DNA of 63,093 nt, counting the filler, from Lenisia limosa (Eukaryota > Protista > Breviatea): the NCBI GenBank assembly GCA_001655205.1. It is 23 parts of 23 records of this genome, joined end to end, with 100 filler letters (N's around TTAATTAATTAA, not from the genome) between each part and the next. Parts side by side here need not be neighbours in the genome. Positions count along the whole stretch, not along the records: positions 13,403 to 16,677 come from LPNZ01009931.1; positions 16,778 to 18,702 come from LPNZ01010829.1; positions 18,803 to 22,710 come from LPNZ01001619.1; positions 22,811 to 24,121 come from LPNZ01009358.1; positions 24,222 to 27,923 come from LPNZ01007295.1; positions 28,024 to 29,587 come from LPNZ01000165.1; positions 29,688 to 32,803 come from LPNZ01006885.1; positions 32,904 to 35,084 come from LPNZ01002733.1; 15 more parts are not named here. One strand, 5' to 3'. This document shows positions 13,303 through 61,853 of this stretch, piece after piece. A program made the translations under genes and the position numbers. The stretch's first letter is position 1, and each line of letters starts with the position of its first letter. Below the pieces are notes generated by a model. It was not told the DNA's origin, did no database searches, and saw nothing but the letters and a program-made list of their open reading frames with translations.

Positions 13303-14232
13303 NNNNNNNNNNNNNNNNNNNNNNNNNNNNNNNNNNNNNNNNNNNNTTAATTAATTAANNNNNNNNNNNNNNNNNNNNNNNNNNNNNNNNNNNNNNNNNN
13401 NNCTTCCTTACGGTCCGAAAAAGACTGGTAGAACATCGATATTTATCGAGGATTTATCGAGCAATTAAGTCTTTTTTTGGACCGTCGGGAAGCCCTAATT
13501 AGAGGAGAGGGTATAATGGGGTAGAGCTATTAAAGAGAAATCCCATCCATAGATCTTCTTTTTTTTAACAAGAAAAATAATATAGATACATTAGAAATCT
13601 AGGGAAACAAATAAATACATAGGGATACCGGATACCATAAACAGATTATCATGCCTCCACGCCCACGCTCCTCGAGACTCTATGGGGGGGATCTAGTATA
13701 AAAGGTGTTACTTTAATATGCACAATTCCTCCAACCTCCTATCCCCCCTAACCTTGTATCAGATTTGAACTGTCCTTTTACTCATATTGTTCACCCCAGA
13801 TTACAATGATCTTTTTAGGCCCTTGAACAAGCCGTCTACTCGTCAATGTGAGGCCACCCGTACCTATTTGATACTTTGCGTTATCTCAGGGTTTTTCTCT
13901 CTTTTTTGTGTTATCACAGGGTTTTGTTTCCAAATTAAAAACAGAATTTACCCCACACACACACAGCATAAACTCCGGGATGCGGTGCTGCAGAAGCCAC
14001 TGGCCTTTGTTTTGTTTGTTTTCAGCCATTTGATTTTGAGCTTTTTTTTTTGTTTCAGGAATTGTCCTATTTTACCCCCCCCCNNNNNNNNNNNNNNNNN
14101 NNNNNNNNNNNNNNNNNNNNNNNNNNNNNNNNNNNNNNNNNNNNNNNNNNNNNNNNNNNNNNNNNNNNNNNNNNNNNNNNNNNNNNNNNNNNNNNNNNNN
14201 NNNNNNNNNNNNNNNNNNNNNNNNNNNNCCAG

Positions 14233-16296
14233 AGTGGCTTTCGAGGAATTAGAAACGCCGAAGCCGCACAAGCTGAATACCCGAAAATTCGGTCCTCCCA
14301 CTCCTCTTGACCACCAAGACGTCTTTGTTGACTTGCGTGACTGTTCTGGTGGGGGGAGGGGGGTTAGACATACATGTAGGAATTCACTTCAGTTCAACAG
14401 AAGACCGAATTTCTCGATAATCGTCGAAAACTATCGATATTTTACTGGTCTTATTTCAAACCGAAATCCCTTGACCACCAAGATTTTAATTGACTTCCGG
14501 AATTGCTCTTGTTGATTTGGGTAGAAATGAACTTTTCTTTCACCCCCACATACACACACACACAGAGAGAGAGAGAGAGACAGACACACACACACCCACA
14601 AATTCATGACATTTTAGACCTTTTAACAGTAGATGCACCCCTCACACACAGCTACCCTTTACAAAGGATACACTTCACTATGTTTTGTAATTTATCACAT
14701 TTTAGACCCCTTAACGTCTGCCGGCCGACCAGTCTTTGACACCATACCCTTTGTCAGAAATACCGTGGTAGGTTTCATGCAGTACTGTTTTATGCTTTAC
14801 AATACTTTGTTTCATTCAACACTGTGGTACTGTTTTCTGCCTGATACAGTACTTTGTTACGTTTTATGCCATGCTCTGTTAGATTTCATATCACTTTGTC
14901 GGTAACACTGTATTTGAAAAATATCATCACTGCGTGGAAAATGATAGTTCACACGTGTGCGCACACAATACCACTTTTTTTATTTGTGTTTGTGTACAGA
15001 GACCATGGTAAGTCTTGACCAACAAAATAAGATAAAATCAGTCACAAAACTTATTACGGCCATTGTATAGTAAAATTTTTTTGAAGAAATTTAATGGCAA
15101 AATTTGAAATGAAAGTAATGCTCCAGTCGCTGCTTTGTCAAACCGCATCACAGCCTTTCTGTATGGGGGTTAAGAGGGAATAAAAAATGAGCCTCATTTT
15201 TTATTCTCTTTAAAGACTGAATTCTTGATAAGCCCTAAATCCTCGATAAATTCTTGAGAAATCCTCAATAAATCCTCGATAAATCCTCAATAATCCCTCC
15301 ATAAACCCTCGACTGTATGTATTATTACTGCTACTATTTACCTCTTTTCATGCATTTCACTCCACCTAGTGTTAGAAACGGACAGTTGCCACGTCGAAGC
15401 TGCCCTTCTGCTTTCGGCAATATTGGTTGGTTTTATCCCCCCCCCCGGTACACTGGAGTGATGTGGTGTTACAGAAGCGACTGGCCTGAACTTTGTTTTG
15501 TTTTGTTGNNNNNNNNNNNNNNNNNNNNNNNNNNNNNNNNNNNNNNNNNNNNNNNNNNNNNNNNNNNNNNNNNNNNNNNNNNNNNNNNNNNNNNNNNNNN
15601 NNNNNNNNNNNNNNNNNNNNNNNNNNNNNNNNNGATTTTTGGCTTTTTTTTATTTCATAAATTTGTTTGTTTTTTTTTGGCTTTATCATCGAGATTTTCT
15701 TCATTTTACCCCCCCCCCCAGACATTCAACTCGGCAGCTGCACAAGGACGTCAAATGAACGACATTTTCATGATCGTTGTGTACCTCCTGCACAGTGGGT
15801 TTGTGATTGTTTTAAGGTTGTGGTGTAAATGGTTTACCTCTTTTTTTGTTTTTTTGCGCAGAGGATTTATGGGTTTATGTATGAGTGTATAAAGTTTGGA
15901 TATTTGTTTACCTCTTGAAAAGTGGTCTTTTCTAGACGTGATGCTGCTGCTATTAAACTATTTTTATTCAGGTTTTTTTGAATCAGCTTTATAAAAACAT
16001 ATGACGCATCATCCATTACCTCTTATAAGCGTGATGGTATGGATGGCTCCGGCCAGATACAACCTTATTTTTATTTCTCATCTCTACATATTCTTATTAG
16101 AGCTTCTCTTTCTGTTCCAATAATAGATTATATTGTCAATATTTCACATAGTATGATATATTTTGGAACCGAAAGAAGCCCATTTTCTTATCGACCACCG
16201 ACTGACCTTCAAGACGCCACTACCCCCCAGGAGTGCGCCGCCGCCGTTTCGGCCTATTCCTTTGTCTCGAACGGGCTTGCTAACGACATCACTCAG
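14233..16296 (+). CDS. Multi-exon hypothetical, probably alpha-helical protein (fragment)
   Basis: Six phase-consistent exons: VAFEELETPKPHKLNTRKFGPP..., VFDTIPFVRNTV, SLLCQTASQPF, LETDSCHVEAALLLSAIL, TFNSAAAQGRQMNDIFMIVVYLLH and ATTPQECAAAVSAYSFVSNGLANDITQ. Confidence 0.6.
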
Positions 16297-16845
16297 GTGA
16301 GTGGGGGTCTTGGAGTTACCCTTTGTGCTTCTCTCCGATACTCTGATACGAAAATATCGAATTATTTAGAGGTTTCATCAAGATATTTAGTATATCTTCT
16401 ACCTTCTACCCGAGTGAAACCTTAGTTACCTTGTCTTATTGTCGTGTTGGTCGCTAAAGATTCGCTTTCGGAACGAAAGACTGAATCGTGGATAATATCT
16501 GTGTTTTATATGTCTTTTGGAACCGAAATTTAAGCCCTAACATCCTCGAGAACTATCGATATTTACCGGTATTGTACCTCTCTTTTTGGCAAATACTACT
16601 TTATGACATAATTACTAGAGAGTTATAAGGCAAATGATTGGGTGAATTAATATTATACTATAATCCAATATCTCTTANNNNNNNNNNNNNNNNNNNNNNN
16701 NNNNNNNNNNNNNNNNNNNNNTTAATTAATTAANNNNNNNNNNNNNNNNNNNNNNNNNNNNNNNNNNNNNNNNNNNNTATGATTCTAGTTTCAATAGAGA
16801 CTTTACTGCAACACGATAGTTTCATTCCTCACACCCCCCCCCCAG

Positions 16846-18198
16846 GAACTTTATTACTGCGGCTTCCTTTTCGCCAAATGGCGAAGTAGCGGTGTGCGGC
16901 ACACTTCAGGGCAAGTGCAGCATTTATGACACTGATGTGGGGCGGTGCAAGGATATTATAGGGAGGAGTGAGATACTTCGGTTCGAAAAATACCGGAAAA
17001 ATATTGATAATTTCGAAGATTTATCGACAGATTCAGTCTTTTTTTGAACTGAAGTGAAGCCCTAGTGATCGAAAGTTCCCTCTTTTTTCTACGAGAGTAT
17101 AGAAATAGTCGGTCTTTCACAGGACCTAAGGGAAGCCTTATGATATCATATTATCAAGGGACACGAAATTTTGTGTTTTGCCACGAGTGAGTACTATATC
17201 ATTAGATGACATGCTGGGGGTGAGTGTAATCTACATAGTATAGGGGGTATTATGTGGGTCCGATTAAGTAATAATCTGTCTAGGGTCTTCGTTTTAAGCA
17301 CTCTATTGACGTGAGATCAGCTCGGGGAAAGAATAAGGTATGTTTATATCTCTCTTCACTTATTGTACGATTGTATGGACTAAGAAGTATATATGGTTTT
17401 TGAAAAAATATACGATTTGATATGAAAAGGGTATTGTTTTTATTTATTGTAGGCTATTTACAGTTAAATTGACAAGAAAGAATGAAAATTATCAAAAAAA
17501 AAGGGGGGAATTGAATTAATGANNNNNNNNNNNNNNNNNNNNNNNNNNNNNNNNNNNNNNNNNNNNNNNNNNNNNNNNNNNNNNNNNNNNNNNNNNNNNN
17601 NNNNNNNNNNNNNNNNNNNNNNNNNNNNNNNNNNNNNNNNNNNNNNNNNTAGCGTTGTTTTCCTCCTCTATTTCACACCACACCATGCATCACCATTCAG
17701 ATTGGCCAAAAGGTGACCGGAGTGGAGGTATCTCCGAACAGCAAGACGGTCCTGGTATCCTCTAATGACTCGCGAATTAGACTTTATTCCCTTGAAAACT
17801 ACCAGCAGGTCGGCTGGTCAAACACACAGCTCCCATTCTTTGGCTTTGTTCTCTCATATATTTTACAATTTTAAATTCATCGAAATTTCCTTTGTTTTAC
17901 TCTCTCTCCCCCCCCCCCAGATTCAGAAATTTAAGGGTCATGTCAACCGAGAAAGCCAAATTCGTGCCATGTTCTCGTTTGAGGGTGCTATTGGGACTCT
18001 ATGCTTCCTCATGAATTTCATTAATTTATAAATTTAAGTATCATGTCTGATAAATAGCGATGTTGTCTTTTTGCAAGTAAAATGAGTCGCTTTTGTCTCT
18101 CGGCTGAAGTATCGCCTCACCCTCCGCAGGGATGATGGCAAATACGTCATATCCGGGTCAGAAAACCAGCAAACGTTTATTTGGAGTGTAGAGAACAA
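16846..18198 (+). CDS. WDR44: WDR44/Rab11BP-like WD40 protein, C-terminal repeats
   Basis: Exons give FITAASFSPNGEVAVCGTLQGKCSIYDT, KVTGVEVSPNSKTVLVSSNDSRIRLYSL, KFKGHVNRESQIRAMFS and DGKYVISGSENQQTFIWS, matching the recalled WDR44 motifs SNDSRIRLYD and N-x-x-SQI-x-A-x-FS. Confidence 0.85.
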
Positions 18199-22180: not shown

Positions 22181-22615
22181 CTAGAGCATAGCAGTAGACA
22201 AGTTGGCAACTTGGCTGTACGACTGCTGTTGGTACTTCTTGACAATCGCCTTGAATGAGCTACCTCGCATCTTCTTCAGCAAGTCAATCTGGGAGGGAGG
22301 GGGGAGGGGGTGAAACGAAGGAAATTTCGATGAAGAATATTGGTGTAAGTAAAGGTAAAATCAGAAAACTTAAAATTAAATTCCTATTTAATCATGACAG
22401 GACTATTTCGGACTTTAATCATGACAGGACTATTTCGGACTTAATCATGACAGGACTATTTCGGACTTTAATCATGACAGGACTATTTCGGACTTTAATC
22501 ATGACAGGACTATTTCGGACTTTAGAGTATAATATGTACGCTAACTCACCATAATAAGGGAACAAGGCTTAATATCCTCCTCAGTGCATCGAGAGTAGTG
22601 TGTCAGAGTTGAGTT
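22181..22615 (-). CDS. A/B-type cyclin, last two exons (Cyclin_C domain)
   Basis: Exon 22550-22615 (NSTLTHYSRCTEEDIKPCSLIM) and exon 22181-22288 (IDLLKKMRGSSFKAIVKKYQQQSYSQVANL...TAG) match the cyclin C-terminal pattern TL-x-HY-x4-EEDL-x-PC...KAV-x-KKY. Confidence 0.75.
22387..22520. repeat. 27-bp minisatellite, 5 copies (TTTAATCATGACAGGACTATTTCGGAC)
   Basis: Head-to-tail units without spacers inside the cyclin intron. One unit lacks a T. Confidence 0.95.
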
Positions 22616-22810: not shown

Positions 22811-24062
22811 ACGGAGAGAGACGCGCGAAGGGCCCTCAAGTTTTCCAATCAACACATTGGGAAGCGCTACATTGTGGTGTGGCTGTCGACCGTTGAGGAC
22901 ATGATGAAGGCTGAATACGAGACGTCGAGTCGGACCCATCGCTGCCAACAGATTTCGCCAGAACTTCTTGCTGACGTAGGCAATTCTCTCTTCCCGTAGT
23001 TGCCCATGCAGAAGCGACTGGCCTGGACTTTGTTCGTTTTGTTGTTATCAAAGGGCAAATGATTGGGTGAATTACTATAATCCAATATCGCTTCTAAGCG
23101 TGAGTGTGTGTGGACGGCTTTGGCCAGATACAACCTTTTTTTAATATTATTTCTCATTGCTATACATAATCGGACTCTGTAGCTTGAGGCCGAGTGCCTG
23201 TCCAGTGAGAAGAACTTCACACAACTCTGTCACCTCGTCCGCGACTTTCCCTCCAAACTCCCTCTGCACATCAAGAACTGTCTGTTCCAAACCATTACAA
23301 AGGTACTGAAAGGGGCTGGAGTTCAGAAATGTTCTCGTTCTACTCCCCCACCCCCCNNNNNNNNNNTGGCCATTTTTGTTTCATAATTTATCCATTTACA
23401 CAAAGTTGATTTTGGGCTTTAGTTTCATAAATTTTCCAATTTTATTCCCCCCAGGTATGCAAGCAAGTCCTGCAGGAAAGCGACGTCCTCCCACCATTCG
23501 CCCTCCCGGTCGCCATCCGCTGCCTCAACCAGGCCCTTTCCCGGGACGCGTTTGCTGAGAGGCAGCAATCCATCGTTGGGGGGGGGGGGGTAATCGNNNN
23601 NNNNNNNNNNNNNNNNNNNNNNNNNNNNNNNNNNNNNNNNNNNNNNNNNNNNNNNNNNNNNNNNNNNNNNNNNNNNNNNNNNNNNNNNNNNNNNNNNNNN
23701 NNNNNNNTATCGGGAAATTCAATCTTTTTTGGGACCGTAGGGAAGCCCTAATTATTTCATATCATATGTAATGTTGTGTTGGGATTCAGACTCGCAATAT
23801 TCAGATGCCTTATTCCAGAGTATACATACCAAAAAAAAACACAAGCAGCCTTATTACCTTTCCAGAGTATACATAAAAAATAAAATAAAAACACAAGCAC
23901 ACCTTCGAACAGCATTTTTATCCCTTTTCGTTCGCAGGTCTGTCCTCACTTCTTTCAGATGCAGAATATCCTGAGGGACTTGAAGGCGATTAGCCGTGAC
24001 CCTTCACTGGCCTCGCAGATCCCCCAGGCCAGTCACCCACAACGCATCTACAACAATATGAA
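22811..24062 (+). CDS. hnRNP F/H/ESRP-like quasi-RRM protein (fragment)
   Basis: Exon 22811-22975 (TERDARRALKFSNQHIGKRYIVVWLSTVEDM) matches the qRRM C-terminal motif A-L-K-x3-HIG-x-RYIEV. Three further phase-0 exons follow (23183-23302, 23455-23574, 23959-24062). Confidence 0.65.
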
Positions 24063-42277: not shown

Positions 42278-42344
42278 AGGGTTGTTAGGAGCATAAATAG
42301 AAGATTAATAATACCATACTATCTGCATAATCATTATCGATATA

Positions 42345-42422
42345 CAGTGACCGGGATAAGTCTTGACCGATTTGCTATGTGATTTCCCAAGGAAAACCGG
42401 TCAAGACTTATCCCGGTCACTG
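42345..42422. mobile_element. MITE family B with perfect 25-bp TIR
   Basis: CAGTGACCGGGATAAGTCTTGACCG ... CGGTCAAGACTTATCCCGGTCACTG around a 28-bp spacer. Other copies at 48699-48774, 60713-60785 and partial 54461-54484. Confidence 0.92.
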
Positions 42423-42913: not shown

Positions 42914-43627
42914 CTCTTTGTTAATGGAGTCGCCGATTTTATCGAAGCAAATTGCAGCGGGTTCGTAGCTGCCCTTTTCCATAAACTGCTTTGCCTTCTG
43001 CTCAATCTGACGAGGTAAGAGAAAAAAATGCAAAATTTAAGCAATTTGGAACCTAAAATATCCGAGAAATGAAGCCCCCTCAATAACCATCAACACTCCC
43101 CAAGACAAACCTCTTCCCTAGACGAGTTCGAGAAGAACTTCTCAGCCACAACTTTTCCGTCATCTTGGGTCATTGTGGCAGCCACGTTGTTCTGGGCAAA
43201 CCAGTCGAAAGCAGGCCGTCTCTTCTCAACACTGAAATCCGTGAATTTATAATACTGATATCCGTAAATTGATAATACTGAAATGCGTGAATTAATAACA
43301 CTGAAATCCCCCCCCCCACTTTGAGTCATAGATCCAGAGGGATGTTCGAGCACGTGTCACTGCAACGTACAGGGCCTTAAGCTATATAGTTAGTGAGGCT
43401 TTGAGCTTTGCAGTTAGGAGTGGCTTTAATTGAGGATTTAAAGGGGAAGGAGTTGGCTTTGTGATAGAATTATACATACCCCACACGCAAACGTATAAAC
43501 CACTAACAACCTAATAATATACCTCAAATAATCCCCCCACCTCGGGCAGTAGAATGTTGTTCGTGACGGAGTTGAAATCCGGCCGCGTTGTTTCGTCATC
43601 TTCAACCTCCACCATACTGTTTCCAAA
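42914..43627 (-). CDS. TRANK1: TRANK1-like UvrD-family helicase/TPR protein (fragment)
   Basis: Exons give NILLPE / LKALYVAVTRARTSLWIYDS (SF1 helicase motif VI), KRRPAFDWF...SSREE and AKQFMEKGSYEPAAICFDKIGD, the order recalled for TRANK1/LBA1. Confidence 0.75.
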
Positions 43628-46305: not shown

Positions 46306-47959
46306 CACATGGTGGTTAGAACTGTTTTCCTATGAACAGGTTTGGAGACACACAATTTATGAAAACAAATCATACCCGGAAGTGGATAATGCCTGAACAT
46401 TTTACCCCACACACACACACACAGAAACACATAATTAGATACATACCATCATACATAACATATTACACACACTCACTACTCACATACAACACACAGACAC
46501 ACAGAAATATATTTATTACACAAAAAATGTATATACATGTCATATAATACATACACACACCATATTTACTATTCAGTTTGTGACTGAGCTGAGAAAGCAG
46601 TACGATGAGTATGTGGCAAATAGCCGCGTGGAGCAGCAGAGCTTTCAGGTTGGGGGAGGGGGGCCTTGGGGGTCAAAGCCTGTAAACAATCCACAAGGCG
46701 GCCTAGTCAAAACGGTTGGAAAAAGACTGACAGTTGGGGCTATACGAATGATATATTAAAGTGTGATATTAATAGTGTGATTATAGAGTTGTCAGGGGGG
46801 GGGGTAAAATTGGAGAAATTTAAGATAACCCAAAAACAACTGGGGTAATAGTTGGGAGTTATAGAGTTTTACGGTGGAGAGGGGAGGGGAGGGTCAAAAG
46901 AGTGTTATCTCAGGGTTGTGTTGCTCTCTCTTTGGTCTGTTTATTCAATAACATTATTTTACTCCCCCTATGTTGCACAATATAATCCTTACTCCCCCTC
47001 TAGGCCCAGCATATCGCAGAGTATAACAGACTCAGCAGCGAGTTCGAAAACCATCGTATTATGCAGGTATGGGGGGGGGGGGATTATAATGATTTGCACG
47101 GGTAAATCTTGTAACATTTTAGTACGAAGACAAGAGACAGATGCTTCGAGAGCAGCAAGGGCTACTTTTCGCTATGCAGGTTTGTGCATCATCATTATCA
47201 TTATTTTCATCATCATCATCACCATCATCATCATCAACAACAACAACAACCATATCATTTTCTAGGCACAATTTGACGAGTATCGGGCCACAGCCGAGTA
47301 TTTGTTCAACTCAGAAGCTGCAAAAGTTTGCAAGGGGGGGGGGGGGGGNNNNNNNNNNNNNNNNNNNNNNNNNNNNNNNNNNNNNNNNNNNNNNNNNNNN
47401 NNNNNNNNNNNNNNNNNNNNNNNNNNNNNNNNNNNNNNNNNNNNNNNNNNATAATATATGCTTCTTTTTTTGTCCTTTGACTGAGCCAGGTTTTGGAACT
47501 ATAACCTGCTTTAACATCCCTCCCCAGCTTGAGGAGAAATTAAATACCCAAATGCAGCGTTACGACCGAGAAATCCGCCTGATTATCCAGGCCAAAGACG
47601 CGGTGAGGGGTCTGGTCTTTGTTTTGTTGGTGTTGTCAGGCAGCAGAGATTTTCCAATTTTACTCTCTCTCTCTCTCTCTCTTCTCTTCTCTCTCTCCTC
47701 TCTCTCTCTCTCTGCTTTGTTTTGTNNNNNNNNNNNNNNNNNNNNNNNNNNNNNNNNNNNNNNNNNNNNNNNNNNNNNNNNNNNNNNNNNNNNNNNNNNN
47801 NNNNNNNNNNNNNNNNNNNNNNNNNNNNNNNNNNNNNNNNNNNNNNNNNNNNNNNNNNNNNNNNNNNNNNNNNNNNNNNNNNNNNNNNNNNNNGACGCCA
47901 AAATCATGTCCCTGGTGGAAGGGTCCGATCTTCAGACTTTGCTACATGGCCATGACCAG
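46306..47959 (+). CDS. Coiled-coil hypothetical protein, 7 short exons all joined in phase 0
   Basis: WWLELFSYEQ / FVTELRKQYDEYVANSRVEQQSFQ / AQHIAEYNRLSSEFENHRIMQ / YEDKRQMLREQQGLLFAMQ / AQFDEYRATAEYLFNSEAAK / LEEKLNTQMQRYDREIRLIIQAKDA / DAKIMSLVEGSDLQTLL. Confidence 0.75.
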
Positions 47960-49082
47960 GTATGCGGGGAGGGGGATCATCGATGCTTTCTCAACATGCG
48001 GCCCTCTCTTTTATTGAGGTTTTATCCACTGTTAATGTGTGTGTTNNNNNNNNNNNNNNNNNNNNNNNNNNNNNNNNNNNNNNNNNNNNTTAATTAATTA
48101 ANNNNNNNNNNNNNNNNNNNNNNNNNNNNNNNNNNNNNNNNNNNNTATATAGACCTGAGGGTTATACATATCATATATAGACCTGAGGGTTATACATATC
48201 ATATAGACCTCAAACACACACACTGTTAATGTGAACCCCCTCCCCTCACTTGGCGATTGAACTCGTCAAAGGCAAATAAGGAGGGAGAACCCACGAGAAC
48301 CATCACCTCACTGTTTGGTTAGAGATTTGGTCGGATATAAGAGCCGAATACAAAAGCAGGATAAATGTACAAGATAAGCAAACACATTGGTGAATATCCA
48401 ATAGAGATGGGTGTGACATATTCGCTGCAGTAACCTTTCCTCCCCCAAGAAAAAGCTAAAAAATATGCGAACCCCCCCCCCACTCTTCTTGGTAAATCAC
48501 TGTTTTGGAGAGGGTCAAACGCTGAAGTCCCATTTGGTAGCCGCCAGAAATCTGAACGTGATAATTTTCAACTTGTAAGCCCAAATGTTTGCTTATATCG
48601 AACAACTAACATATCATATATAAAACACCAAAATATGTTCCGATTGAACAAAGAACACATAACAAGCCCAATATTGTGGAAATAAGTGCACTTCCGTACA
48701 GTGACTGGGATAGGACTTGACCAATTTTCCTTAAGAAATCGTATCAAATCGGTCAGGACTTATCTCTGTCACTGAATATCGTATAATATATAAAATTAAC
48801 GAATTACCTAATGTATTGGGACCATCTATAATAAAACCTATGATATGACATATGATAAAACTAACATATACTACTTGAACAAAGTACAGACGCAATATCA
48901 TGCATAGAATGTCACAAAGAGGCAACTATAACAATTCGTTCTCATAGTAGTCGTGAAAAAGGGGTCATTTCAATAACCTACTTGGAGAAATCGGACTGAG
49001 AGGCCCATTTCAACGCCATCTTTAGTATAGCCAAAAACTTTTCCCTCAGACTGGGGCAACTGATTCTATGCATGTCAGAAAA

Positions 49083-49089
49083 TATGATA

Positions 49090-49151
<62 letters not shown>

Positions 49152-49275
49152 ATAATGGTGATAATGGTGATAATGGTGATAATGGTGATAGTGGTGATCA
49201 TGGTGATCATGGTGATAATGGTGAAGATGAGAATGATGAGGATGATGAATATGATGATGTGATGATGATGATGAA
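49083..49275. repeat. (GAT)n microsatellite grading into the 9-mer GGTGATAAT
   Basis: About 20 pure GAT units followed by about 8 GGTGAT(A/C)AT units. Confidence 0.95.
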
Positions 49276-50515
49276 GATGTGGGATTGCAGCAACCCTCCC
49301 CACTTTGGTAATAACGTCAGAAAATGCGGCGCGGAAATGGTACTTCGTAGGAGAGCCATCATACTATGGTATAATCGAAAAAAGGAGTGTCAGGCCAACC
49401 TTCCATACCATGAAGAGAGATATTGGATTATATAATTTACAACATAACACTAATTGGTGCTTTCCCAACATACATAATAGAGATACTCTGATTCTGCGTG
49501 GTAGACTCCTGAAGTACCCTGCAAGGATGAGAGACTGAAATTACCCCAAACTGATACAATGCCCCTAAGCTGACGAATCCATCTGCGCTGGTGTGGAAAT
49601 ACCGCNNNNNNNNNNNNNNNNNNNNNNNNNNNNNNNNNNNNNNNNNNNNNNNNNNNNNNNNNNNNNNNNNNNNNNNNNNNNNNNNNNNNNNNNNNNNNNN
49701 NNNNNNNNNNNNNNNNNNNNNNNNNNNNNNNNNNNNGCGAAGTGTTATTGCCAGGGCTTCCCTACGGTCCGAAAAAGACCGATAAAATATCGATATTTAT
49801 TGAAGATTTATCGAGAAATTTAGTCTTTTTTTGGGACCAGAGGGAATCCCTAGACCTACATATATCTTATCGATTGAGTGATTTGAATATCATGACAATC
49901 CTTCATCTTCTACCCCCACAGTTCCTCATCATTCGCTGGGAAGGTGTTCAAGACGTATTTCTTCACTCCAAGAGATATATCTGTAAAGGTTAAGAGAATA
50001 TCAAGACTTTCCAATCCAAAATTAGTGACTAGTGTGAGTTGAGTTGAGCGTTAAAGAGAAAATCAGCCATGGGTAAGAAGAGAAAATGAGTTAGTGTATA
50101 TATCTGTGAACTGAGCCAAAGGTTGTGTAAGCTCATTAAAACTATCAGGCTGAACCGTCTTGCGATGTATTGCTCTTATTTGAAACGCTGACTCAAAGTT
50201 ATTCTCTAAAGAGAAGAAGAGAAGCAATGTCGAAATGCTACAAAAGTAGCAATTGAAAGGATAACAGCATACAGCTAAGACCCCCACAAAGCCAAAAAAA
50301 ACGTTCCCAAAAACCACCAACCAAGTCCATTATCCGTGTTCATTGAAAGCGAAACCTCAGTTCCCTCGTCGCAGTAATGGGTAGGTGCCATGACCGTCCA
50401 ATTGATCACCTCATCNNNNNNNNNNNNNNNNNNNNNNNNNNNNNNNNNNNNNNNNNNNNTTAATTAATTAANNNNNNNNNNNNNNNNNNNNNNNNNNNNN
50501 NNNNNNNNNNNNNNN

Positions 50516-51608
50516 CTTTTGATGACATTGGAACACCACAACCAGCCCGATTGGCTTACCACTTTCCTCGAGTACAGTAACGCAGTTTTCATTATGCTGT
50601 TCGTTATCGAGGCTACTTTGAAGATCTGGGTAGGACCGCCGGCATTTTTTTTGGACATTATTAATATTCTATATGAAGATACGAGGAGAGGCGTGAGGGG
50701 AGTCATTGATGGTGATGAGTGATTTACTTAGGGGGGGGGGCTATATTTCAAGATACCATGACATCGTGCTTTATTTCGTGTGTTGACAGACAACAGAGTT
50801 GATTTTGGGCTTTTTTTTTTTGTTTCATAAATTTTCTTATTTCACCCCACCCACACTAGTTCTCCAGTTACATTCCACTGATAATTTCCTAGGCGCTTCA
50901 CCTGTCGTACTTTAAGGACAAAATGAACGTTTTCGATTTCAGGTAAATGAGGGGGGAATTTCAATTGAGTTAAACGGGAGTGGGGTGGAGAGGAGGAAGG
51001 ATTTGATGCATATTGACGTGGACTGGAGCGAACAGATGATTCGATACACACAGTGTGAAGAAGTGGCTTCAGCCATAACGATGATGAATTGGGCTCAGGT
51101 AATTTGGTTTAACCTGGCTCGAAACAGGCTTCTTGTCAAAGGTTGCATACTATCTAAAGTTTTGCCAAATGGGGGTAGGGGTGATTACTTTACCACAGTG
51201 CTTCACTTCGGTTCGAAAAAAGACTGAATTTCTCGATAAATCCTCGAAAACTATCGATATTTTACCAGTCTTTTTGTTCCTTTGCCCTTCAACCTTGGAG
51301 GGTAAAATAATGGGGTCGTTAGTGACACTTCTAAGCACAAACAAGTTACGTATTTCTCTGTATTTTAGTGAAAACTGAGAGTTTCAAAAGTGTCATTGAT
51401 GAGTTAACAAAAATATTGCCAACTCCCCACTCTGACCACGCCAGCTTTCTGATCATCTTGATCATTCAATTTCTGTTCCCACTTTATTCCACCCTCACCA
51501 CGCTAGCATTCTCGTCTTGTCGCTCATTGAATTGGCCATACCGGGTGAAAGCGTGGCGTTTTCGGCCTTCAGAGGACTGCGTCTTCTCCGTCTCTTGCGC
51601 CTTGCCAG
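50516..51608 (+). CDS. Four-domain voltage-gated Ca2+/Na+ channel alpha subunit, S1-S4 fragment
   Basis: Exons 50516-50629 (TLEHHNQPDWLTTFLEYSNAVFIMLFVIEATLKIW), 50893-50942 (ALHLSYFKDKMNVFDF) and 51507-51608 (ILVLSLIEL...FSAFRGLRLLRLLRLAR, the S4 arginine repeat) are phase-consistent. Confidence 0.88.
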
Positions 51609-51804: not shown

Positions 51805-54800
51805 CCCCCATACAGAGGGTTCAGGGGGGACAATAGGGGACATTTTGGGGTTGTACTCCATGACGGTGAGACTGTCGTTGAGAACACAGGCGTCAATACC
51901 TCGCGACTTCCTAAAAAGGAAAGTTAAAATGGGGTGACTTCCAAAAAAGGCAAGTTATCCGGGTTATTTGAAAAAGTTAGCCCCCCCCCCCCNNNNNNNN
52001 NNNNNNNNNNNNNNNNNNNNNNNNNNNNNNNNNNNNNNNNNNNNNNNNNNNNNNNNNNNNNNNNNNNNNNNNNNNNNNNNNNNNNNNNNNNNNNNNNNNN
52101 NNNNNNNNNNNNNNNNNNNNNNNNNNNNNNNNNNNNNNNNNNNNNNNNNNNNNNNNNNNNNNNNNNNNNNNNNNNNNNNAAATCCTTGATAAATCCTCGA
52201 TAAATCCTCGTTAAATTTAGATAATGAGATATATCTTTAATAAATCCGTAAAGTATCGATATGTTTCCTATCTTTATCGAACCGAAGTGAAGCCCACATC
52301 CCCCACTGTTCTTCATTTGCGACGGCAAGGATGAGAGTGCGGTGGAAGGAGTGAGTGGGCCTCTTAGTGGTACTGTTCACTACAATGTTGGATTTATCTT
52401 GATAAAGAGAGAGGGGTGTGTGTATAATATCAATGTTAGAGTGTTTATATCTTGATAAAGAAGGGGGGGGGGGAGATTTGTGAAACAAAAAAAAAGGCCC
52501 AAATCAACTCTATTGGCTGACAGTATACAAGGGTTTATTAAAACAAAACAAACAAAGCCCAGTCCCTCCCCCCCAAACATTCAGAAGAGTCACCAACGAG
52601 AGACACCATGATGAGCTAAAAAGTCAATTGGAAGAAAATATGTATGGTTATATTATTGGACGTAAGATGATGGTGTTTTTGTTAGAGGTATGATGATGAT
52701 GTTGTTGTTACCCCCCCCTCCCCCACCGAAAGAGGCATGCAAGACAGCGGGAAGGCATCACACGACAAAGTGTCCATGTTCACGCGGCCGCGCAACCGGT
52801 TTTTGAACAGTTTTCTGATCTCCTCGGGGCCCACAGCCAGCGTGTCTACTTTTCGGTCTGGGGGGGGGGGGGNNNNNNNNNNNNNNNNNNNNNNNNNNNN
52901 NNNNNNNNNNNNNNNNNNNNNNNNNNNNNNNNNNNNNNNNNNNNNNNNNNNNNNNNCACCCATACTGAAGCTCAGTTTGGCGTTCGCGGTGTGATTGCGG
53001 GACATTGTGCTTCCCCTAAACAGTCACGTTTTATTGGTAGACTAGTTGAGTGGCTTGACACAAAATCTATGAAAAAACCAAAACAAGTGAGCATCCAAAT
53101 CTAAGAAGAGACGAGTAATCTAAATCTGAGACGAGAAATCTAAATCCAAGAAGAGTAACAATATTTGGTATTGCTTATGAAGCAAGAGATTGCTTTCTCA
53201 TCAAATGCCCAGATCAAGACCCTTTCAGCCCCTGAATTTCACTTGACACCACCACCACACTTAGATACGAAATTTGACCCTCTCCCCCTCCATACCACTT
53301 GAAGTCGTAACTTGAGACGGTGGAGTGACTGGCACAGGAGCTCTGAGTGAAATATCCCGTGATGTTCTGATTGCCTTCAATGTCCTTGAAGTATCTACAC
53401 AGTGTGAGCAATGATTAGGGCAGTATCTGACCGAAGCCGTCCACATCACCATGATTATAAGGGATATTGGATTATTGCAACTGCAACACAACCACAATTG
53501 CAAGGGACTTTGATTTTCCAGCCTACTTAGCTACGAAGTTGGGTACGAAAGTGGACAGAACTTCCGTTCCGAAGTAAAACGGCTGGGTATCAGGGACAGC
53601 GTGATTAGCCTGGGAGGGTAAAATTGGATAATTTAAAAACAAAATAAAAATAATAAAAAATATCAGCATCAACTCTGTTGTCAATGATATCAGCATTAAC
53701 ATCACCACCACATCATCATCATCAGCAGCATCATCATCATCATCAACAACATCAAAATATCATCATCAACAACATCAAAATATCGTCATCGTCACCCCCT
53801 TCCCACCGAAATATCATCATCACCGAAGTCGAAGGTAATAACAGGGGCCAATTCGATTCCATCAAGAAGCTTCAGTTTCGGGAAGATCTCAACAATTTCC
53901 CTAAAGTGTAACCAGGGCTTCCCTGTGATCCAAAAAGACCGTTTAAATATCGATATTTATCGAGGATTTATCGAAATATCGGTCTTTTTTTGGGACCACC
54001 TAAGTATAACAAGCTCTCTCAACAATTTCCAAATAGAAGTCATTTCAACAATTTGATTAAAGAATGAAAGCTTCGAGAATTTCAACTTCATGTACATATC
54101 AGAGTGTGTCTATCTGTTTGCTTCAATTACTGAATTTCGATGAAGATCAATTTGGTTCAAATTGAGAAGGTGAATTACCCCATCCTCCTCCACCCATTTT
54201 TCACAACCTACCCCCAAACTCACACACACCCCAGCATTATTATCATTATTCCTCACACACACTACCATACGCTCACCCACAAAAAAATAAAAATAATAAA
54301 ATAAAATAATAAAAATAAAAAACTCCTACCATATGCTAACACCACCTCCCCCCCACAAAAAAAAAACAAACAAAAAAAAAAACNNNNNNNNNNNNNNNNN
54401 NNNNNNNNNNNNNNNNNNNNNNNNNNNNNNNNNNNNNNNNNNNNNNNNNNNNNNNNNNNNGTCAAGACTTATCTCGGTCACTGTATGCCAATACCCCCCC
54501 TCCCAAACCTGGAATAGTCGGTCTGTGCTACGTTGTTTACACAAGGGTTGTTGCGGATGATAAGCTCGTTTAAGTTTCCAAGGTACTGCAAGGACTGGAG
54601 GGGAAAAGAGTGAAGAAGCATGGTAATTTGTTAATGGTATCCCTATGTATCTATTTGTTTCCCAAGATTTCTAACTTTTATTTCTCTTGTTAAAAAACAA
54701 AAGAGTGAAGATTGAAAATTTATGAAACAAAAAAGCCTAAAATCCGCTCTGGCTTGCAACAAAAGAGGGGTGAAAACTAAAAAACCAACAAAGCCCAGGT

Positions 54801-56297
54801 CGCTTCTGCAGCACCACATCCCATCACTCCAGCGTAGAAAAAAATGGAAACAACGAAACAAAAAAACAAATTGACACAAACCAGAGGAAAAAGGGTGGTG
54901 AAAACAAAAGAGTTGAGTGATAGTAAAAGTCCTCAAAGGGTCGGTCTTTTTGATCCGATACTGACATTTGATAAACCCCGGGTACCTTGAAGGTGGAAAG
55001 GGACGAAATGTCGTTGTCTTCAAAAGACTAAAACCATAAGCAGAAGAATATTTGCGACTTTTTGTTTATTTGTTATTGTTTGTGCCTGTTTAATATTCTT
55101 ATTTATTCGTCAATGATATGAGGTAAAAAAAAGGGGCATCTGGCCGAAGCCGTCCACACACTCATGCTGAAGAGATATTGAATTGTAGTACCTGGCCAAA
55201 GCCGTCAACATCATCACGCTTATTTGAAATATTGGAATTGTAAAATATTAATTCACCCAATCTTTGCCTTACAACTCTGTGCAATAACAAAGTGCAAAAT
55301 TCATTAATAGAAGACCCACGAGATTTTTGACGGTCTGAGAGAGTTCAATTCCCTCGTTGAAGAAGGCAAGACGCGGGATTCGGTTGTTGCCAAAGGATAT
55401 AGTCTCCACCTTTGGACTGTCATATATTTCAATTTCTTATTCATAAATATATTGTATATCATATTGTATATTATACTAAACGTATGCCCATTACTGAACC
55501 TTTTTCCAAATGACTTTTATTTTTTAACTACAGACGCTGCGACCCTCTTTTTAGATGGGCCCAATACCCCTCCCCCCCTACGCCCGGCGCGGCCTTGTTA
55601 ATGACGGCGATAACGCCGGCACCGAAGCGCTCCCTCGAAAAGTCCACATCCACTCCATGCATCATCTGGCGTTGACGGTTAGACAGATGATATATGATAT
55701 ATGTACTCCATGCATCATCTGGCGTTGGCTTTTAGACAGATGGTAAATGATAGTTGTACCCCCCCATGTATCTGAGCAGCATAACAACTAGGGCTTCACT
55801 TCGGTTCGAAAAAAGACTGAATTTCTTGATAAATCTTGAAAAACTATCATACTGGTCTTTTTTGAACCGAAGATACCGCAAAGGGGCAGCATATCATCAT
55901 ACCCTCCAATATTCTTTAAATTAGGTAACAGAGGCAAAATAGCATTCCTCTGATAGGGCTTCAGAACGATCCCATAAAAGGCCGAATCTTCTGATAAATC
56001 CTCGCTATCGATATTTCGACGGCCTTTTTCGGACCGCACGGAAGCACTACCGGTAAGACAAAAGAAAGAGTCAAAACCTACGGCTTCACTTTGGTTCGAA
56101 AAAAGACCCGTAAATTATCGATAGTTTTCGAGGATTCATTGAGAAATTCAGTCTTTTTTTTCGAACCGAAGTGAAGCCCTATCAAAACATCGTCTAACAG
56201 GATACCCCCTTCACCAGCTGATCTCGCATGTTGTTGAGATTGAGGAATTTGCTGGCAGAGTCGTAGTTTTCCCTGACGAAAGCCTTGAGAAGCTCGG
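51805..56297 (-). CDS. NXF1: Nuclear mRNA export factor NXF1/TAP/Mex67 (LRR and NTF2-like domains)
   Basis: About 11 phase-consistent exons: LLKAFVRENYDSASKFLNL / GVDVDFSR...APG / VETISFGNNRI...TVKNL / SFEDNDISSL / LNELIIRNNPC / EIFPKLKLLDGIELAPVITFD / FYFGTEVLSTFVPNFVAK / YF...SRN / LIMVSLVG / SFHRTLILAVA / ACVLNDSLTV, collinear with recalled NXF1. Confidence 0.9.
56079..56181. mobile_element. MITE family A copy in an NXF1 intron
   Basis: TIRs with flanks TCAAAACC / TCAAAACA. Two more copies at about 55789-55870 and 55954-56045 lie in the same intron. Confidence 0.85.
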
Positions 56298-56766: not shown

Positions 56767-57724
56767 AGAAGGCGCGTCCCCAATGGAGGTGCAGGAACTG
56801 AAGAAGGAGCTGGAGGAAACAAAGGTATGGATGGAGGGCTGGAAGGGTTGTATGAGCAAAGTAAATTGGGGGCTCAGAAACTAACTTTATTTTTGTATTT
56901 ATAGAACCTGAGTGCTACAGGGTGGAATTGCTCTTTTGAGAGTTTTTTTTTTTTTGAGTCTGAGTTATAATTGGCAGAACAAATACCAAAATTCACCAAA
57001 AAATGGGGTTCCAAAGTAAGTTTTTATTTATTTGGTGGTAGTTTCAGATTATTCGGTTCGTAATTAGTTCTCCAGTATTCTAAATCGAAATTTCCTTCGT
57101 TAAACCCTGTGTTGTTAGCCAACAGAGTGGATTTTGGGCTTTTTTTTCCTCATAAATATTCCACCCACTCCTCCCCAGGCCGCCTTAGCCGACACGCAGG
57201 CCAAACTCAGTCGACGACCGGATGCGGGTGATGCTGATGGTGACAATAAACTACTTGCTGCTTTGGAGGAGTTTGAGTCTAAGGTGGGAATACTGGCAAC
57301 AGAGTTAATTTTGGGTCTTTTGTTACATAAATTATCTGTTTTACCCCACGATGCTGTGCTGCAGAAGCGACTGCCTGGGCTTTGTTTGTTTTGTTGTAAT
57401 CAACCCTCGTTGATTTTGGGCTTTTTTTGTTTTGGAAATTGTCCAATTTACCCCCCCCCCCCAGACAGCCAGCCTGGAAGCCAGCAATCTTGCTTTGGAA
57501 GAGGAAAAAGACCGTTTGGAGAACCAACTTGCCCTCAGCTCCAAGTCCAGTGTCATGTCCGATGAGGCTCAGAAGCAAATCGAAGTGGGTATTGGGATCC
57601 TTCAGCCAGATACCATAAGAGTGGACTGCTCGGCCAGGTACAACCTTGTTTTTATACATGCATATTTCTAATACTGTCAGGAACTGGAAGCTGAGCTTTC
57701 CAAGCTTCGCCAACAACAATTCAG
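56767..57724 (+). CDS. Coiled-coil hypothetical protein (four exons)
   Basis: EVQELKKELEETK / AALADTQAKLSRR...LEEFESK / TASLEASNLALEEEKDRLENQL...QIE / ELEAELSKLRQQQF, with phase-0 joins. Confidence 0.7.
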
Positions 57725-58306
57725 GTTGTGGTGGTCATTTGATTGTTTCTACAATTTATGTTTGCGTTTAATGGTTAATGCGCGATTTATACCACATTTA
57801 ACGTGATTTTCTCATCTTATATTATGCATCCAAGCCATTTCAGTTTGATTTACACAACTTTTAAAGACAATTACGCTACTTTGCGTTAATTGNNNNNNNN
57901 NNNNNNNNNNNNNNNNNNNNNNNNNNNNNNNNNNNNTTAATTAATTAANNNNNNNNNNNNNNNNNNNNNNNNNNNNNNNNNNNNNNNNNNNNTCTTAATG
58001 GAATAAGATTTTATCTTTTATCCTGTTGAGTACGCGTGTTCTTTTTTGTTTTATAACACACTAATAGATAACTATCGATATTATTTCTTTGTTCGACCAG
58101 AGGGAAGACCCCCCCCCCCTTAATGAATCAATGATAATGTCGTTATTATGTTCTACAAATATTTTGCTTTGTCAAATGTTTTGAGTTTGTTTTTTACATA
58201 CTTTCTCAATAGAGTTAATCACCCACCCACTTCAATAAAGGTGAAATCTGCACCGCAACCACCTCACCATGAAAAAAGGTGATAATCCGTATTTATGACC
58301 CATTAG

Positions 58307-60873
58307 GCCACTCGGGAAACGTCGTATGCAGCACATGGAATGCGCAGTACCAGAAGCTCACGACTGCGGACGATAACGGCCTGATCATTGTGTGGATGTT
58401 GTTTAAAGGTGGGCATGATGATGTAGCGAATTGTTTCATCCCAGAAACAAGAAATTGATATCTGCTCATTCTTCAGAAATGTGGTACGAAGAAATGCTGA
58501 ACAACCGTAAACAAAGTCGAGTAGGAGATATGAGCTGGAACTCCAGTGGAACACGAATTGCTATTGCCTTCCAAGATGGTGAGTGAAAATGACCCCCNNN
58601 NNNNNNNNNNNNNNNNNNNNNNNNNNNNNNNNNNNNNNNNNNNNNNNNNNNNNNNNNNNNNNNNNNNNNNNNNNNNNNNNNNNNNNNNNNNNNNNNNNNN
58701 NNNNNNNNNNNNNNNNNCCCATTAGAGTTGATTTCGGTTTGTTTTTCTCTCATAGAAGACATTACCCTCCCCCCTTCTGCTCCTTAAACTGAAAAGAAAA
58801 AGGTGTCTAACAACCTCCCCAGGAGCAGTTATTGTTGGCTCGGTGGATGGCAACCGTAAATGGGCAAGCACAATTGGAACGTCGTTATCCCATGTTGTTT
58901 GGTCCCCTGACGGCCGTTATTTGGTGTTCGCGTCCGGAGAGGGCAAACTGCTTCTTCATGACGCTTCAGGCACGCAGATTGTGGGGGGCGCATGGGGCTC
59001 AGATTGTGTATGGGTGGGGTGCTCAATATCCGTGATAAGTCATGACACGATTGACTAAAGATAAAGCTCAATATCCGTGTCAGGATTTTGTGATCAGTGT
59101 AGACTCGCAGATGTCTCATTTCTCACATCGTAGGGTGTTCTTGCGAATTTCTGTTATGAAGAAGGGCAACCAACATTCCCAGTGGCCTCTATGGACTGGT
59201 GGGCCCCCAGGTTTATTTTGTTTATGATGGATAAACGGTGNNNNNNNNNNNNNNNNNNNNNNNNNNNNNNNNNNNNNNNNNNNNNNNNNNNNNNNNNNNN
59301 NNNNNNNNNNNNNNNNNNNNNNNNNNNNNNNNNNNNNNNNNNNNNNNNNNNNNNNNNNNNNNNNNNNTTATCCAATTTTACCCCTTCCCCCCAGGTACGA
59401 CGGAAGTGAGGGCTATGTAGAGGCTCACTGCCCCTGCTTTGCCATTGCCTTCAAGGACGGACGGATCCAAATCATGCGTTTTGAGATGGACGAGAGTAGG
59501 GCGGGCAAATGGAATGCTCCCACATTATTTGAGATTCATGGTATATTCACCATTTGTTCCTGGGTTTATTTGTGATTCTTGGTATATTTAGCATTTGTTC
59601 CTGGGTTTATTTGTGATTCTTGGTATATTTACCGTTTCCTTCTTTGTCACTTCTAACACGTTAGACCCCGTTCTTATTGACACCGGGCTGAACATTGTCA
59701 AGTCCTGCTGGAATGTTAAGGGTTTGTGGGGGGGGGGGGGGNNNNNNNNNNNNNNNNNNNNNNNNNNNNNNNNNNNNNNNNNNNNNNNNNNNNNNNNNNN
59801 NNNNNNNNNNNNNNNNNNNNNNNNNNNNNNNNNNNNNNNNNNNNNNNNNNNNNNNCACGAACTTAGAAGCCCAAACAATATCCAACCACAAACATAGCAA
59901 TATGAATATTGTGAAAAGATGTTTTAATATTGCTACTTTGGCGCTCTCATATGGGACTCATTTTGATATGATCTTGGTTGTAAATCGACCCTTACCCTCG
60001 GTTATTATGGGCATTATTTATGTGTATTCCTTATTAGCTCATATTTCTCATTACGGTGTTTGTTCAAGCCATCAGAAATGGGAAAAGTGTGAAAGATAAA
60101 TATCCCTATTTTCTATGAACTCATAATGTACTTCAAAAAATTGTTATTCCCCCCTCCCCCCCCCAATTNNNNNNNNNNNNNNNNNNNNNNNNNNNNNNNN
60201 NNNNNNNNNNNNNNNNNNNNNNNNNNNNNNNNNNNNNNNNNNNNNNNNNNNNNNNNNNNNNNNNNNNNNNNNNNNNNNNNNNNNNNNNNNNNNNNNNNNN
60301 NNCAGAGGGGGAATTCGGTTCGAAAACAGAATCCTCGAAACCGGTCTTTTTGGGACCAAAGTGAAGCCCTTGTTATATCTTCGGGTCTATACTGTCCATC
60401 AAGACCGTCAAATACCGATGTGTTTCGCGAATAACCAAGAAATTCAGTTCATTATATGACCATGTTGGAGTCTTAATTATGTGACCATGGTGGAGCCGTA
60501 ATTATGTGACCATGGTGGAGCCGTAATTATGGGACCATGCTGGAGCCGTTGTACAATCAATATATCTAAAAAGCGTGATGGTGTGGATGGCTTTGGCCAG
60601 ATAAAACGTTGTTTTTTTTATTTCTCATTGCTAAAAAATACTATATTATATAATATGAAAGGTGGAAGATGGGGAAATGAAGAGGGTGGTAAGTCTTGAC
60701 CACTATCTACTACAGTGACTGGGATAAGTCCTGAGCGATTTGATGTTTTCCCAGGAAAATCTGCCAAGACTTATCCCGGTCACTGTATATTCCCTTCAAG
60801 CCCTCAGCTTTTCACTTTTTCAGGCGAAGAGAAAACCATCCATCAAGTACAGTTCTACACCCCTTTCGGCCAT
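58307..60873 (+). CDS. WDR35: WDR35/IFT121 intraflagellar transport complex A subunit, N-terminal part
   Basis: Exons 58307-58408 ([32 protein letters not shown]), 58477-58578, 58823-58980 ([14 protein letters not shown]), 59134-59198, 59395-59495 ([20 protein letters not shown]), 59665-59721 (PVLIDTG) and 60824-60873 (VQFYTPFG) match recalled WDR35. Confidence 0.95.
60455..60546. repeat. 25-bp tandem repeat, about 4 copies (AATTATGTGACCATGGTGGAGCCGT)
   Basis: Located in a WDR35 intron. A separate 41-bp unit occurs twice at about 59541-59630. Confidence 0.85.
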
Positions 60874-61189
60874 GTGAGTGGTTTGTAGCTAATATATCGG
60901 GGTGAGTGGTTGCATTGGAGTACCCCCCTCCCCCTTATGTTGTCCCATNNNNNNNNNNNNNNNNNNNNNNNNNNNNNNNNNNNNNNNNNNNNTTAATTAA
61001 TTAANNNNNNNNNNNNNNNNNNNNNNNNNNNNNNNNNNNNNNNNNNNNGAGTGATGGGATGCAGTGCTGCAGAAGCGAAGGGCCTGGCTTTGTTTGTTTT
61101 GTGTTTTCATGCTTTTTTGTGTAATAAATTTTCCAATTTTACCGCCTTCCCCCCAAGTACACTAAATTACTAAATCCTCACCCTCGTAG

Positions 61190-61853
61190 CCGCCTTCCAG
61201 CTTGATGGACACTGCAGCGCTAAGATCAGTCAGGTCACTTTCAACACTGAAACCGCGTATGTAGGGGTATCTGTTTATGTTATATAATTGGTGATAGGTT
61301 GGGAGACATGTATTATGATGATGGGGGGACTAAAGGATGTATCATTTGAGATGATGGGGGAGGAGGTAATTGTATTAAAATATGATTAGGGCTTCACTTC
61401 GGTTCGAAAAATTCCGATTAATTATCAATAAATTTCGAAGATTTTTCGAGAAATTCAGTCTTAAATCAAGGTGTCAAATGGGAAGTTGTCTCGTATATCC
61501 GAAGCACGCTATTCTACTGCGCGTCATATTGAATGTGAATCACGCCACTTATTTTTAACTCCTTCCTCAAAATCGACTTAAGAGTCATTTTCAATACAAA
61601 AGAGAATAATATACATAAATCACTCCAAGGAACGCACTTCGTAATTGAACTTCTATCCGAGACAACTTCCCTTTGAAACCTGCTTTAAATGAGATATGGG
61701 TGAAATTTAGGAGTGGGGTTAACAGAATCTTGGACTTTCACTCCAACCTCCAATATTCATCATTGACATTTCCTTCGTTTTACTCCCCCCCTCCAGCGCC
61801 ATGGTTGACAGTAACTCCGTTTTCAGCGCTTCCAGTGTCAGAATTATGCCTTG
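61190..61853 (+). CDS. Hypothetical protein (two exons)
   Basis: 61190-61256 (AFQLDGHCSAKISQVTFNTETA) joins in phase 2 to 61798-61853 (AMVDSNSVFSASSVRIMP). Confidence 0.45.

Follow-up and report, generated by a model that had tools for sequence, protein, structure and literature searches.

Why should introns of unrelated genes carry the same repeated sequence close to their 3' ends? The question is raised by a stretch of DNA of the breviate Lenisia limosa (GenBank assembly GCA_001655205.1), 63,093 nucleotides (nt) long and referred to here as the window, which is made of 23 short scaffolds of 1.1–5.3 kb each with fixed spacers between them, i.e., ca. 58 kb of sequence. A preliminary description of this DNA had proposed that a cassette of two repeats, modules I and II, provides the 3' splice site of many introns. 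We find that a mobile or templated cassette ending up at intron 3' ends is supported, on account of a strong sense bias together with an enrichment at acceptors. As to its origin, we give about even chances to templated copying into introns that already existed, anchored at a shared YNAC-C-run-YAG motif, the modules being host-sense repeats of predicted introns.

Host strands and splice sites were taken from a custom gene finder with a strand-symmetric background and without any module feature, and its predicted acceptors and donors are called “modelled” throughout; two exons were corrected by hand before the distance tests. The host strand was called in 20 of the 23 scaffolds, that of scaffold 19 being set from Pfam. 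As a control, five modelled introns of a Cwc24/RNF113-like gene devoid of cassettes (8762–10224, + strand) were reproduced exactly by the transcriptome protein P0069, and a Cwc24-like exon of 45 amino acids was 100% identical to a Lenisia limosa transcriptome protein in EukProt. In WDR35 the modelled acceptors agreed with spliced alignment, and one donor was misplaced.

Using nhmmer with profiles seeded from copies in the window, we found 18 copies of module I (ca. 135 nt) and 10 of module II (ca. 75 nt), with no match in the reversed window used as decoy and pieces of the modules on 19 of the 23 scaffolds, which bears out the earlier count of about 25 occurrences across scaffolds. Median pairwise identity was 77% for module I and 81% for module II, and the family is therefore old. 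Exact module-I patterns had no match in metagenome contigs or in viral contigs, and the profiles of all repeats of the window had none in any of 80 loci that were fetched. Copies are also chained, in the orders II-I, I-I, I-II and, with a further repeat that we call family III, I-III (nhmmer and the tail scan described below), and by eye most intact module-I heads come immediately after a C-run or a sequence resembling a tail, which would fit repeated hits on one target or the copying of a tandem master.

The orientation of the copies is nearly uniform. All 18 copies of module I and nine of the 10 of module II (27 of 28 together) lie in the sense of the host gene, so that the strand bias reported earlier holds with an independent gene finder and Pfam. 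Family III, a non-palindromic repeat of 100–200 nt with 18 nhmmer hits that had been missed before, is host-sense in all 16 callable copies, and the bias is therefore not special to modules I and II. The position of the copies was assessed with a tail scan, in which profiles deprived of the C-run and AG were used and only matches above the best decoy score were kept. It gave 34 matches, 32 of them sense, one antisense and one on an uncalled strand, and superseded a list of 32 tails drawn up by eye, which was biased to acceptors (15 of the 22 that could be resolved lay at one). Among the measurable sense tails, 15 of 26 (58%) end within 25 nt of a modelled acceptor, counting to the end of the profile, against a chance expectation of 8–14% (p = 3e-7). 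As controls for acceptor distance we used two families of miniature inverted-repeat transposable elements (MITEs A and B): strong sense copies of modules I and II end at most 35 nt before the next acceptor in eight of 18 cases, versus two of 35 for the MITEs (p = 0.0014). Family III was not significantly shifted to acceptors (3 of 12, p = 0.17). Seen from the other side, a module match with z ≥ 4 is present at 16 of the 107 testable modelled acceptors (about one in seven), including two borderline cases, and at one in antisense.

Intron ends might also look alike by chance, because their composition has converged, or because the assembly is faulty at homopolymer gaps. The window has many N gaps sitting at C and G runs, the assembly breaks at such runs beside many copies, and the tails are T-rich like any acceptor region. 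However, E-values down to 1e-31 without decoy matches, copies that are 63–98% identical and carry private changes, unlike collapsed repeats, and that single antisense match among the acceptor windows largely refute this explanation, which we find hardly credible.

The preliminary description listed 13 acceptors served by the cassette, and the gene finder places an acceptor at all of them (its 61797 being 61796). In 11 the last 75 nt contain a significant module match. The remaining two are weaker: at 33015 no more than a module head is present, 72 nt upstream, and at 59394 only a 14-nt tail after an N gap (59368–59394, +), which matches seven other module-I tails with at most two mismatches (0.07 matches expected by chance at one mismatch and 0.97 at two) and is followed by a C-run and the acceptor of WDR35 intron 59199–59394. 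Support from homology is available for two cassette acceptors only, 59394 through WDR35 homologues and 17920 through a generic WD40 profile that picked intron 17809–17920 independently; the same profile left the junctions at 36480 and 35792 unresolved. Not all the gene names proposed for these hosts stood. WDR35 was confirmed and scaffold 5 codes for a WD40 protein, which may be WDR44 by resemblance; a homologue search with its WD40 exon returned none and a PDB search only generic WD40 matches. The cyclin has one weak Pfam hit (E = 0.075) and the dynein no support. Two exons may belong to NXF1, by resemblance; they had no Pfam or PDB match, the PDB searches being uninformative.

Copies at acceptors come in several forms. 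A near full-length module I (37422–37557, −; nhmmer E 1e-31, z 15) ends 10 nt before modelled acceptor 37422. Module II stands before modelled acceptors 22289 (its 3' part, 22289–22349, −), 35792 (35792–35856, −) and 61796 (its tail, 61748–61796, +), all by nhmmer and gene model. Module-I tails detected by the tail scan precede 36480 (36480–36537, −), 32471 (32471–32517, −, absent from the earlier list), 3780 (3745–3780, +, also by gene model and outside the span first described) and, weakly, 43628 (43628–43689, −); two in tandem precede 23454 (23373–23454, +), and another makes up most of the 88-nt modelled intron 33918–34005 (33949–34005, +; gene model and tail scan). Before modelled acceptor 53610 there is a module-I tail with an expanded T-rich middle (53610–53680, −), identified by acceptor match and tail comparison. 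Chains reach acceptors as well. At 57038–57178 (+; nhmmer, gene model, tail scan) module II is followed by the 3' half of module I, a C-run and modelled acceptor 57178, and at 57293–57464 (+; same evidence) a 3' part of module I followed by module I extends from 9 nt after modelled donor 57284 to modelled acceptor 57464. The region 15456–15721 (+; nhmmer, tail scan) has a module-I head after a C10 run, an N gap, a module-I tail, a module-II tail, a C-run and modelled acceptor 15721, its I-II chain being 15633–15721. An I-like tail and a II tail precede acceptor 17920 in the WD40 gene (17840–17920, +; nhmmer, gene model), and a 5' part of module I joined to family III (23007–23162, +; nhmmer) ends 20 nt before modelled acceptor 23182.

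Other copies lie elsewhere in the introns or at scaffold ends. A full-length module I (54706–54828, −; nhmmer, tail scan) is ca. 110 nt upstream of a modelled acceptor, without AG at its end; another module I (52472–52568, −; nhmmer) runs from 10 nt after modelled donor 52578 to ca. 90 nt before the acceptor. A module-I 3' half (50776–50844, +) and a module I with an internal deletion (61050–61141, +), both by nhmmer and tail scan, end 48 nt before modelled acceptors 50892 and 61189. A module I (13976–14083, +) and a full module II (46015–46095, +), both by nhmmer, end in a C-run at an N gap that hides the acceptor. Modules II and I are joined directly at TTTTACC-AGTGATGG in 41027–41232 (−; nhmmer), next to a scaffold end; an I-like tail is joined to a module-I head at 42650–42700 (−; nhmmer) with the same junction as at 41144, and a module-I tail is joined to a head at 40880–40926 (+; tail scan), at a scaffold end where the host strand is uncalled. 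The two antisense copies (33126 and 46795) both adjoin G-runs of 10–11. One is a module II whose C11 run doubles as the G-run of modelled donor 33113 (33113–33178, −; nhmmer, gene model) and the other a module-I tail in mid-intron next to 10 G (46793–46850, −; tail comparison); being in mid-intron, the latter has a run that splice selection does not explain.

What does the cassette bring to the intron? The alignments of the modules stop at a branch-point-like TTTTAC or TTTCAC, whose terminal A is at −9 to −23 from the acceptor, and the sequence beyond it varies in length and make-up and resembles any acceptor in this genome. In cassette-free introns YNAC occurs at −17 to −4 in 41 of 56 (A peak at −9) and further upstream in 12 of 47, and 25 of the 35 readable sense C-runs of at least 6 nt have no cassette. 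Since homology ends at TTTTAC and C-run plus AG are the general acceptor motif, neither can be credited to the cassette. The claim that it supplies the AG is therefore not confirmed, and the suggestion of a donated polypyrimidine tract plus AG survives by half, as shared sequence up to a branch-point-like motif. The single exception is a 5' half of module I (34270–34336, +; nhmmer, gene model) in which an internal GTCAG is modelled acceptor 34336. From its position, the cassette likely supplies the branch region and ends at the likely branch point. Splice signals are unusual across the 66 gap-free modelled introns, with donors that have 50% G at +3 to +12 and no fixed GTAAGT, and C-rich acceptors with a YNAC peak at −9 and a short distance from branch to AG. 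The idea that intron ends are self-complementary was dropped, as within an intron the G-richness of the 5' end and the C-richness of the 3' end are uncorrelated (rho = −0.12, n = 66).

Could insertion without site preference, filtered by selection, have produced this distribution? The modules would then be relics of non-autonomous transposons, either Helitron-like or similar to short interspersed nuclear elements (SINEs), and selection would have removed antisense copies and those with competing branch points or acceptors. Helitrons and Helentrons have a 5' TC, a 3' hairpin plus CTRR, an A|T or T-rich target and a Rep-helicase partner. Read in antisense, two module junctions end by eye in CTGG before T; other heads differ. 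The tRNA-, 7SL- or 5S-derived head of SINEs was not found, ARAGORN giving no tRNA on the modules and Rfam nine matches at E ≤ 1 in the window, none on module I or II. Five folded copies of modules I and II had no stable structure (z from +1.8 to −1.9, versus −10.2 for MITE A), family III had none either, and five long copies gave no signal of terminal inverted repeats (TIRs), so that these are not MITEs. A selective filter has points in its favor: ordinary repeats abound in the introns (36 MITE A and nine MITE B copies), family III is all sense without a significant acceptor bias, as selection on orientation predicts, and secondary insertion of transposable elements commonly explains similarity between introns (10.1101/2022.06.06.494994, from the parts of the paper available). 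However, many neutral mid-intron copies would be expected, because 46% of intron-interior positions have no AG in reach, and a rough model in which AG-free mid-intron copies are assumed harmless predicts 16–26% of surviving copies at acceptors, significantly below the fraction observed (p = 6e-4). The lack of any nhmmer copy of module I or II on scaffolds 2 and 16, where no convincing gene was modelled, also speaks against the filter, but weakly, since these scaffolds lack MITE A as well. Among the rivals of templated copying, a pure selection filter ranks first, unlikely but to be taken seriously.

The preliminary description also considered old introners. In this scenario every cassette intron would have arisen by insertion, and decay or replacement would later have removed its 5' part. 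In the available parts of the largest survey, introners are defined by similarity near both intron boundaries, one-sided cases being discarded as secondary insertions (Gozashti et al., 10.1101/2022.06.06.494994). By this definition the cassette is not an introner, because the 5' ends are unrelated, there is no TIR or target site duplication (TSD) of fixed length, and the copies nest. Over their first 30 nt, cassette introns resemble one another no better than other introns do (10.6 vs. 11.4), whereas in their 3' parts they do (20.2 vs. 10.8); overlaps at the junctions vary from 0 to 5 nt, and not one of the intact module-I heads falls on a modelled donor. On the other hand, junction overlap is slightly raised in cassette introns (2.1 vs. 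1.4 nt, p = 0.04 with one donor corrected and one gapped intron dropped; p = 0.22 before), as introners would predict. In several introns (donors 57284, 52578, 35307, 29755, 15426 and 22976) the cassette starts 9–31 nt from the donor and takes up most of the intron length, which also speaks for introners.

Introners should also occupy lineage-specific positions, and this could be examined in the N-terminal exons of WDR35 (IFT121; 58306–60876, +; Pfam and spliced alignment to homologues). Out of the 80 fetched loci 45 were used, the other 35 being mostly weak, distant WD40 matches. All five placeable introns are common to at least one of these 45 loci from other eukaryotes: G104 phase 1 (loci L026, L029 and L031), G138 phase 1 (L040, L055), S192 phase 0 (L027, L028, L029, L039), W213 phase 2 (L035) and N247 phase 1 (L028). 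Two of them contain pieces of cassette: the W213 intron ends in the module-I tail with 14 visible nt mentioned above, and the G138 intron (58579–58822) has a weak module-I remnant away from the AG (58724–58754, +; 7.2 bits in the tail scan, best decoy 5.9). In this one gene, then, both cassette-bearing introns are at shared positions, which together with the unrelated 5' ends weakens the case for old introners; we consider them quite unlikely.

The tail-to-head junctions suggest still another template. Module I might be a whole former intron, and its excised RNA (circle or lariat) the template, in which case the junction would be that of the circle and rolling reverse transcription would have copied it. 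The junction TTTTACC-A-GTGATGG occurs in two independent copies, an A precedes GT in every intact head, strict sense orientation would follow naturally, and circles in which trimmed or adenylated intron 3' ends are joined to the 5' splice site do exist (PMC10996645, from the parts available). However, the GT of the module-I head scores at the 9th percentile of modelled donors and 12% of the 771 internal intron GTs score as well, the GT of module II is not donor-like, other heads are preceded by different sequence and none of the five folded copies has a stable structure. We regard an excised-intron template as highly improbable. A related and very unlikely scenario is a selfish RNA homing to the branch point and C-run: module I, as an excised and circularised intron, would be written by reverse transcription into ancient introns at their 3' ends, and two or three master introns would be the source of about one in seven branch regions. 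If true, intron ends would be replaced while no intron is gained, a class of events that the filters of introner surveys exclude.

We favor templated copying into existing introns because it is the simplest joint account of strand, position, end point and chains. In this genome the acceptors have YNAC in common, its A lying around −9 to −12, and a C-rich run comes next. DNA broken or nicked at this motif would pair with a template ending in the same motif, which may be an RNA on which a reverse transcriptase of the host acts or DNA used by template switching; we lean to RNA since family III is also all-sense, although DNA template switching would give the same look. A variable length upstream would then be copied, leaving a sense copy just before the C-run with the old intron end pushed back or replaced, and repeated events would build the chains that are seen in several orders. 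The copy would thereafter serve as branch region, with a C-run and AG assignable neither to host nor to cassette. Harmful copies are probably selected against, which would make the pattern sharper, and no new intron would be required. Homogenisation of intron ends by conversion, the third option offered in the preliminary description, comes close to this. Pairing of tail and target in target-primed reverse transcription (TPRT) is an established model for such anchoring (PMC3812793, in the parts available). Short tandem duplications (11–53 nt) are frequent in the introns, and two local ones, 35021–35084 and 55652–55759, repeat an acceptor-like end or an intron-exon boundary.

Several observations weigh against templated copying. 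Of the 26 measurable tails, 11 end away from an acceptor; four of these open a chain in which the second unit reaches one, and the other seven have no such partner. Most acceptors come from a gene finder whose second training pass used the final 14 nt of acceptors it had predicted, among them those with a cassette. The 3' polarity is clear for module II (5' end present in five of nine, 3' end in eight of eight) and family III (four of 18, 12 of 16), and modest for module I (nine of 16, 10 of 14 strong hits). No reverse transcriptase or transposase was detected among the open reading frames (ORFs) of the window scanned (sets of 113, 23 and 87). Cassettes are found at 10 of 35 sense C-runs versus two of 33 G-runs (p = 0.024); as G-runs are equally common and used far less, the run alone is not the target, and extra homology or selection is needed. 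Finally, the argument from ancestral positions comes from one gene; at W213 it relies on a 14-nt tail and a single locus that shares the position, at G138 on a weak remnant, and the W213 intron may have been gained in parallel.

Three other repeat families occur in the window. Family III copies include 1630–1723, 16007–16086, 23052–23162 (joined to module I at 23051), 44526–44608, 53405–53480, 55115–55271 and 60553–60633, and four of 12 end 10–36 nt before a modelled acceptor. MITE A is a palindrome of ca. 99 nt with TA at both ends and a fold z of −10, mostly intronic (2470–2569, 1435–1532, 56079–56181 and ca. 33 more), which causes spurious MIR319 scores in Rfam. MITE B is an 80-nt palindrome with CAGTG...CACTG ends, presumably Tc1/mariner-like termini (42344–42423, 40262–40341, 60712–60786, 39528–39605 and 48698–48774 among nine copies). 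The region 8762–13302, with the Cwc24-like gene and a WD40 gene that we take to be UTP15-like, has short introns (36–144 nt) without module I, II or family III, unlike most other scaffolds; P0069 reads into its 36-nt modelled intron 10225–10260 and stops, so that this intron is retained in that isoform. Two scaffolds, at 5436–8384 and 43895–45796, have no convincing gene model and no module I, II or MITE match, the second having one family III copy. Weak Pfam matches (E 3e-4 to 6e-3) correspond to fragments of a UvrD-like helicase (43093–43627, −), presumably TRANK1-like, an ion channel (50516–51608, +) and an AB-hydrolase lipase (48250–50415, −). A homologue search with a 97-amino-acid exon of scaffold 12 returned only its own genomic ORF and three weak, unrelated matches.

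How does the cassette compare with known systems? SIRE elements of Trypanosoma cruzi insert in pyrimidine tracts in the orientation of transcription and can provide a trans-splicing acceptor. They are intergenic and have a known autonomous partner, being non-autonomous derivatives of VIPER (PMC6681497), whereas the cassette is in cis-introns and no partner was found in the window ORFs scanned. Introners such as those of Micromonas and fungi (10.1101/2022.06.06.494994; PMC12130899; review PMC11282704) are similarly repeats in introns of unrelated genes, in splicing orientation and reaching a boundary, but they show similarity at both ends, new positions and often TIRs or TSDs, while the cassette is restricted to the 3' end, is nested and occurs twice in introns of shared position. 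Antisense Alus that become exons (PMC2330237) are likewise oriented repeats giving a pyrimidine tract and 3' splice signals; Alus, however, occur in both orientations (ca. 55:45) and create new alternative exons, and the cassette lies almost always in one orientation and precedes existing, constitutive-looking exons. Elements that target microsatellites or homopolymers by TPRT (PMC3812793) invite comparison, since a 3' end paired with simple sequence would leave 3'-anchored copies of variable length, but their known tails are poly(A) or short tandem repeats, and for the cassette no Pol III head, TSD or partner among long interspersed nuclear elements is shown. Intron circles of the intron-lariat spliceosome (PMC10996645) link an intron's 3' end with the 5' splice site like the tail-to-head junction, and stwintrons (PMC8469720) are nested in splice elements of other introns like the chained copies; unlike both, module I gave no sign of being, or having been, spliced as a unit. 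In the literature searched we found no description of elements targeting a C-run or branch point, and nothing on repeats that accumulate at the 3' end of conserved cis-introns, the search covering few subscription papers and no survey supplements; titles and abstracts on Lenisia introns had nothing on intron repeats.

That repeats lend splice signals is already known. The pattern described here is real and testable, on 58 kb with modelled splice sites, and its mechanism is what we infer. Breviates are close outgroups of animals and fungi and all five placeable WDR35 introns are at shared positions, so that old positions with repeat-derived ends can be tested directly. If the pattern is genome-wide, splice signals of conserved introns would be overwritten by repeats that aim at the acceptor or survive only there. 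Branch-point regions could then be turned over and homogenised by a route other than intron gain, one that would be invisible to the largest introner surveys, whose filter, as far as the available parts of 10.1101/2022.06.06.494994 describe it, needs similarity at both ends and would therefore discard the pattern.

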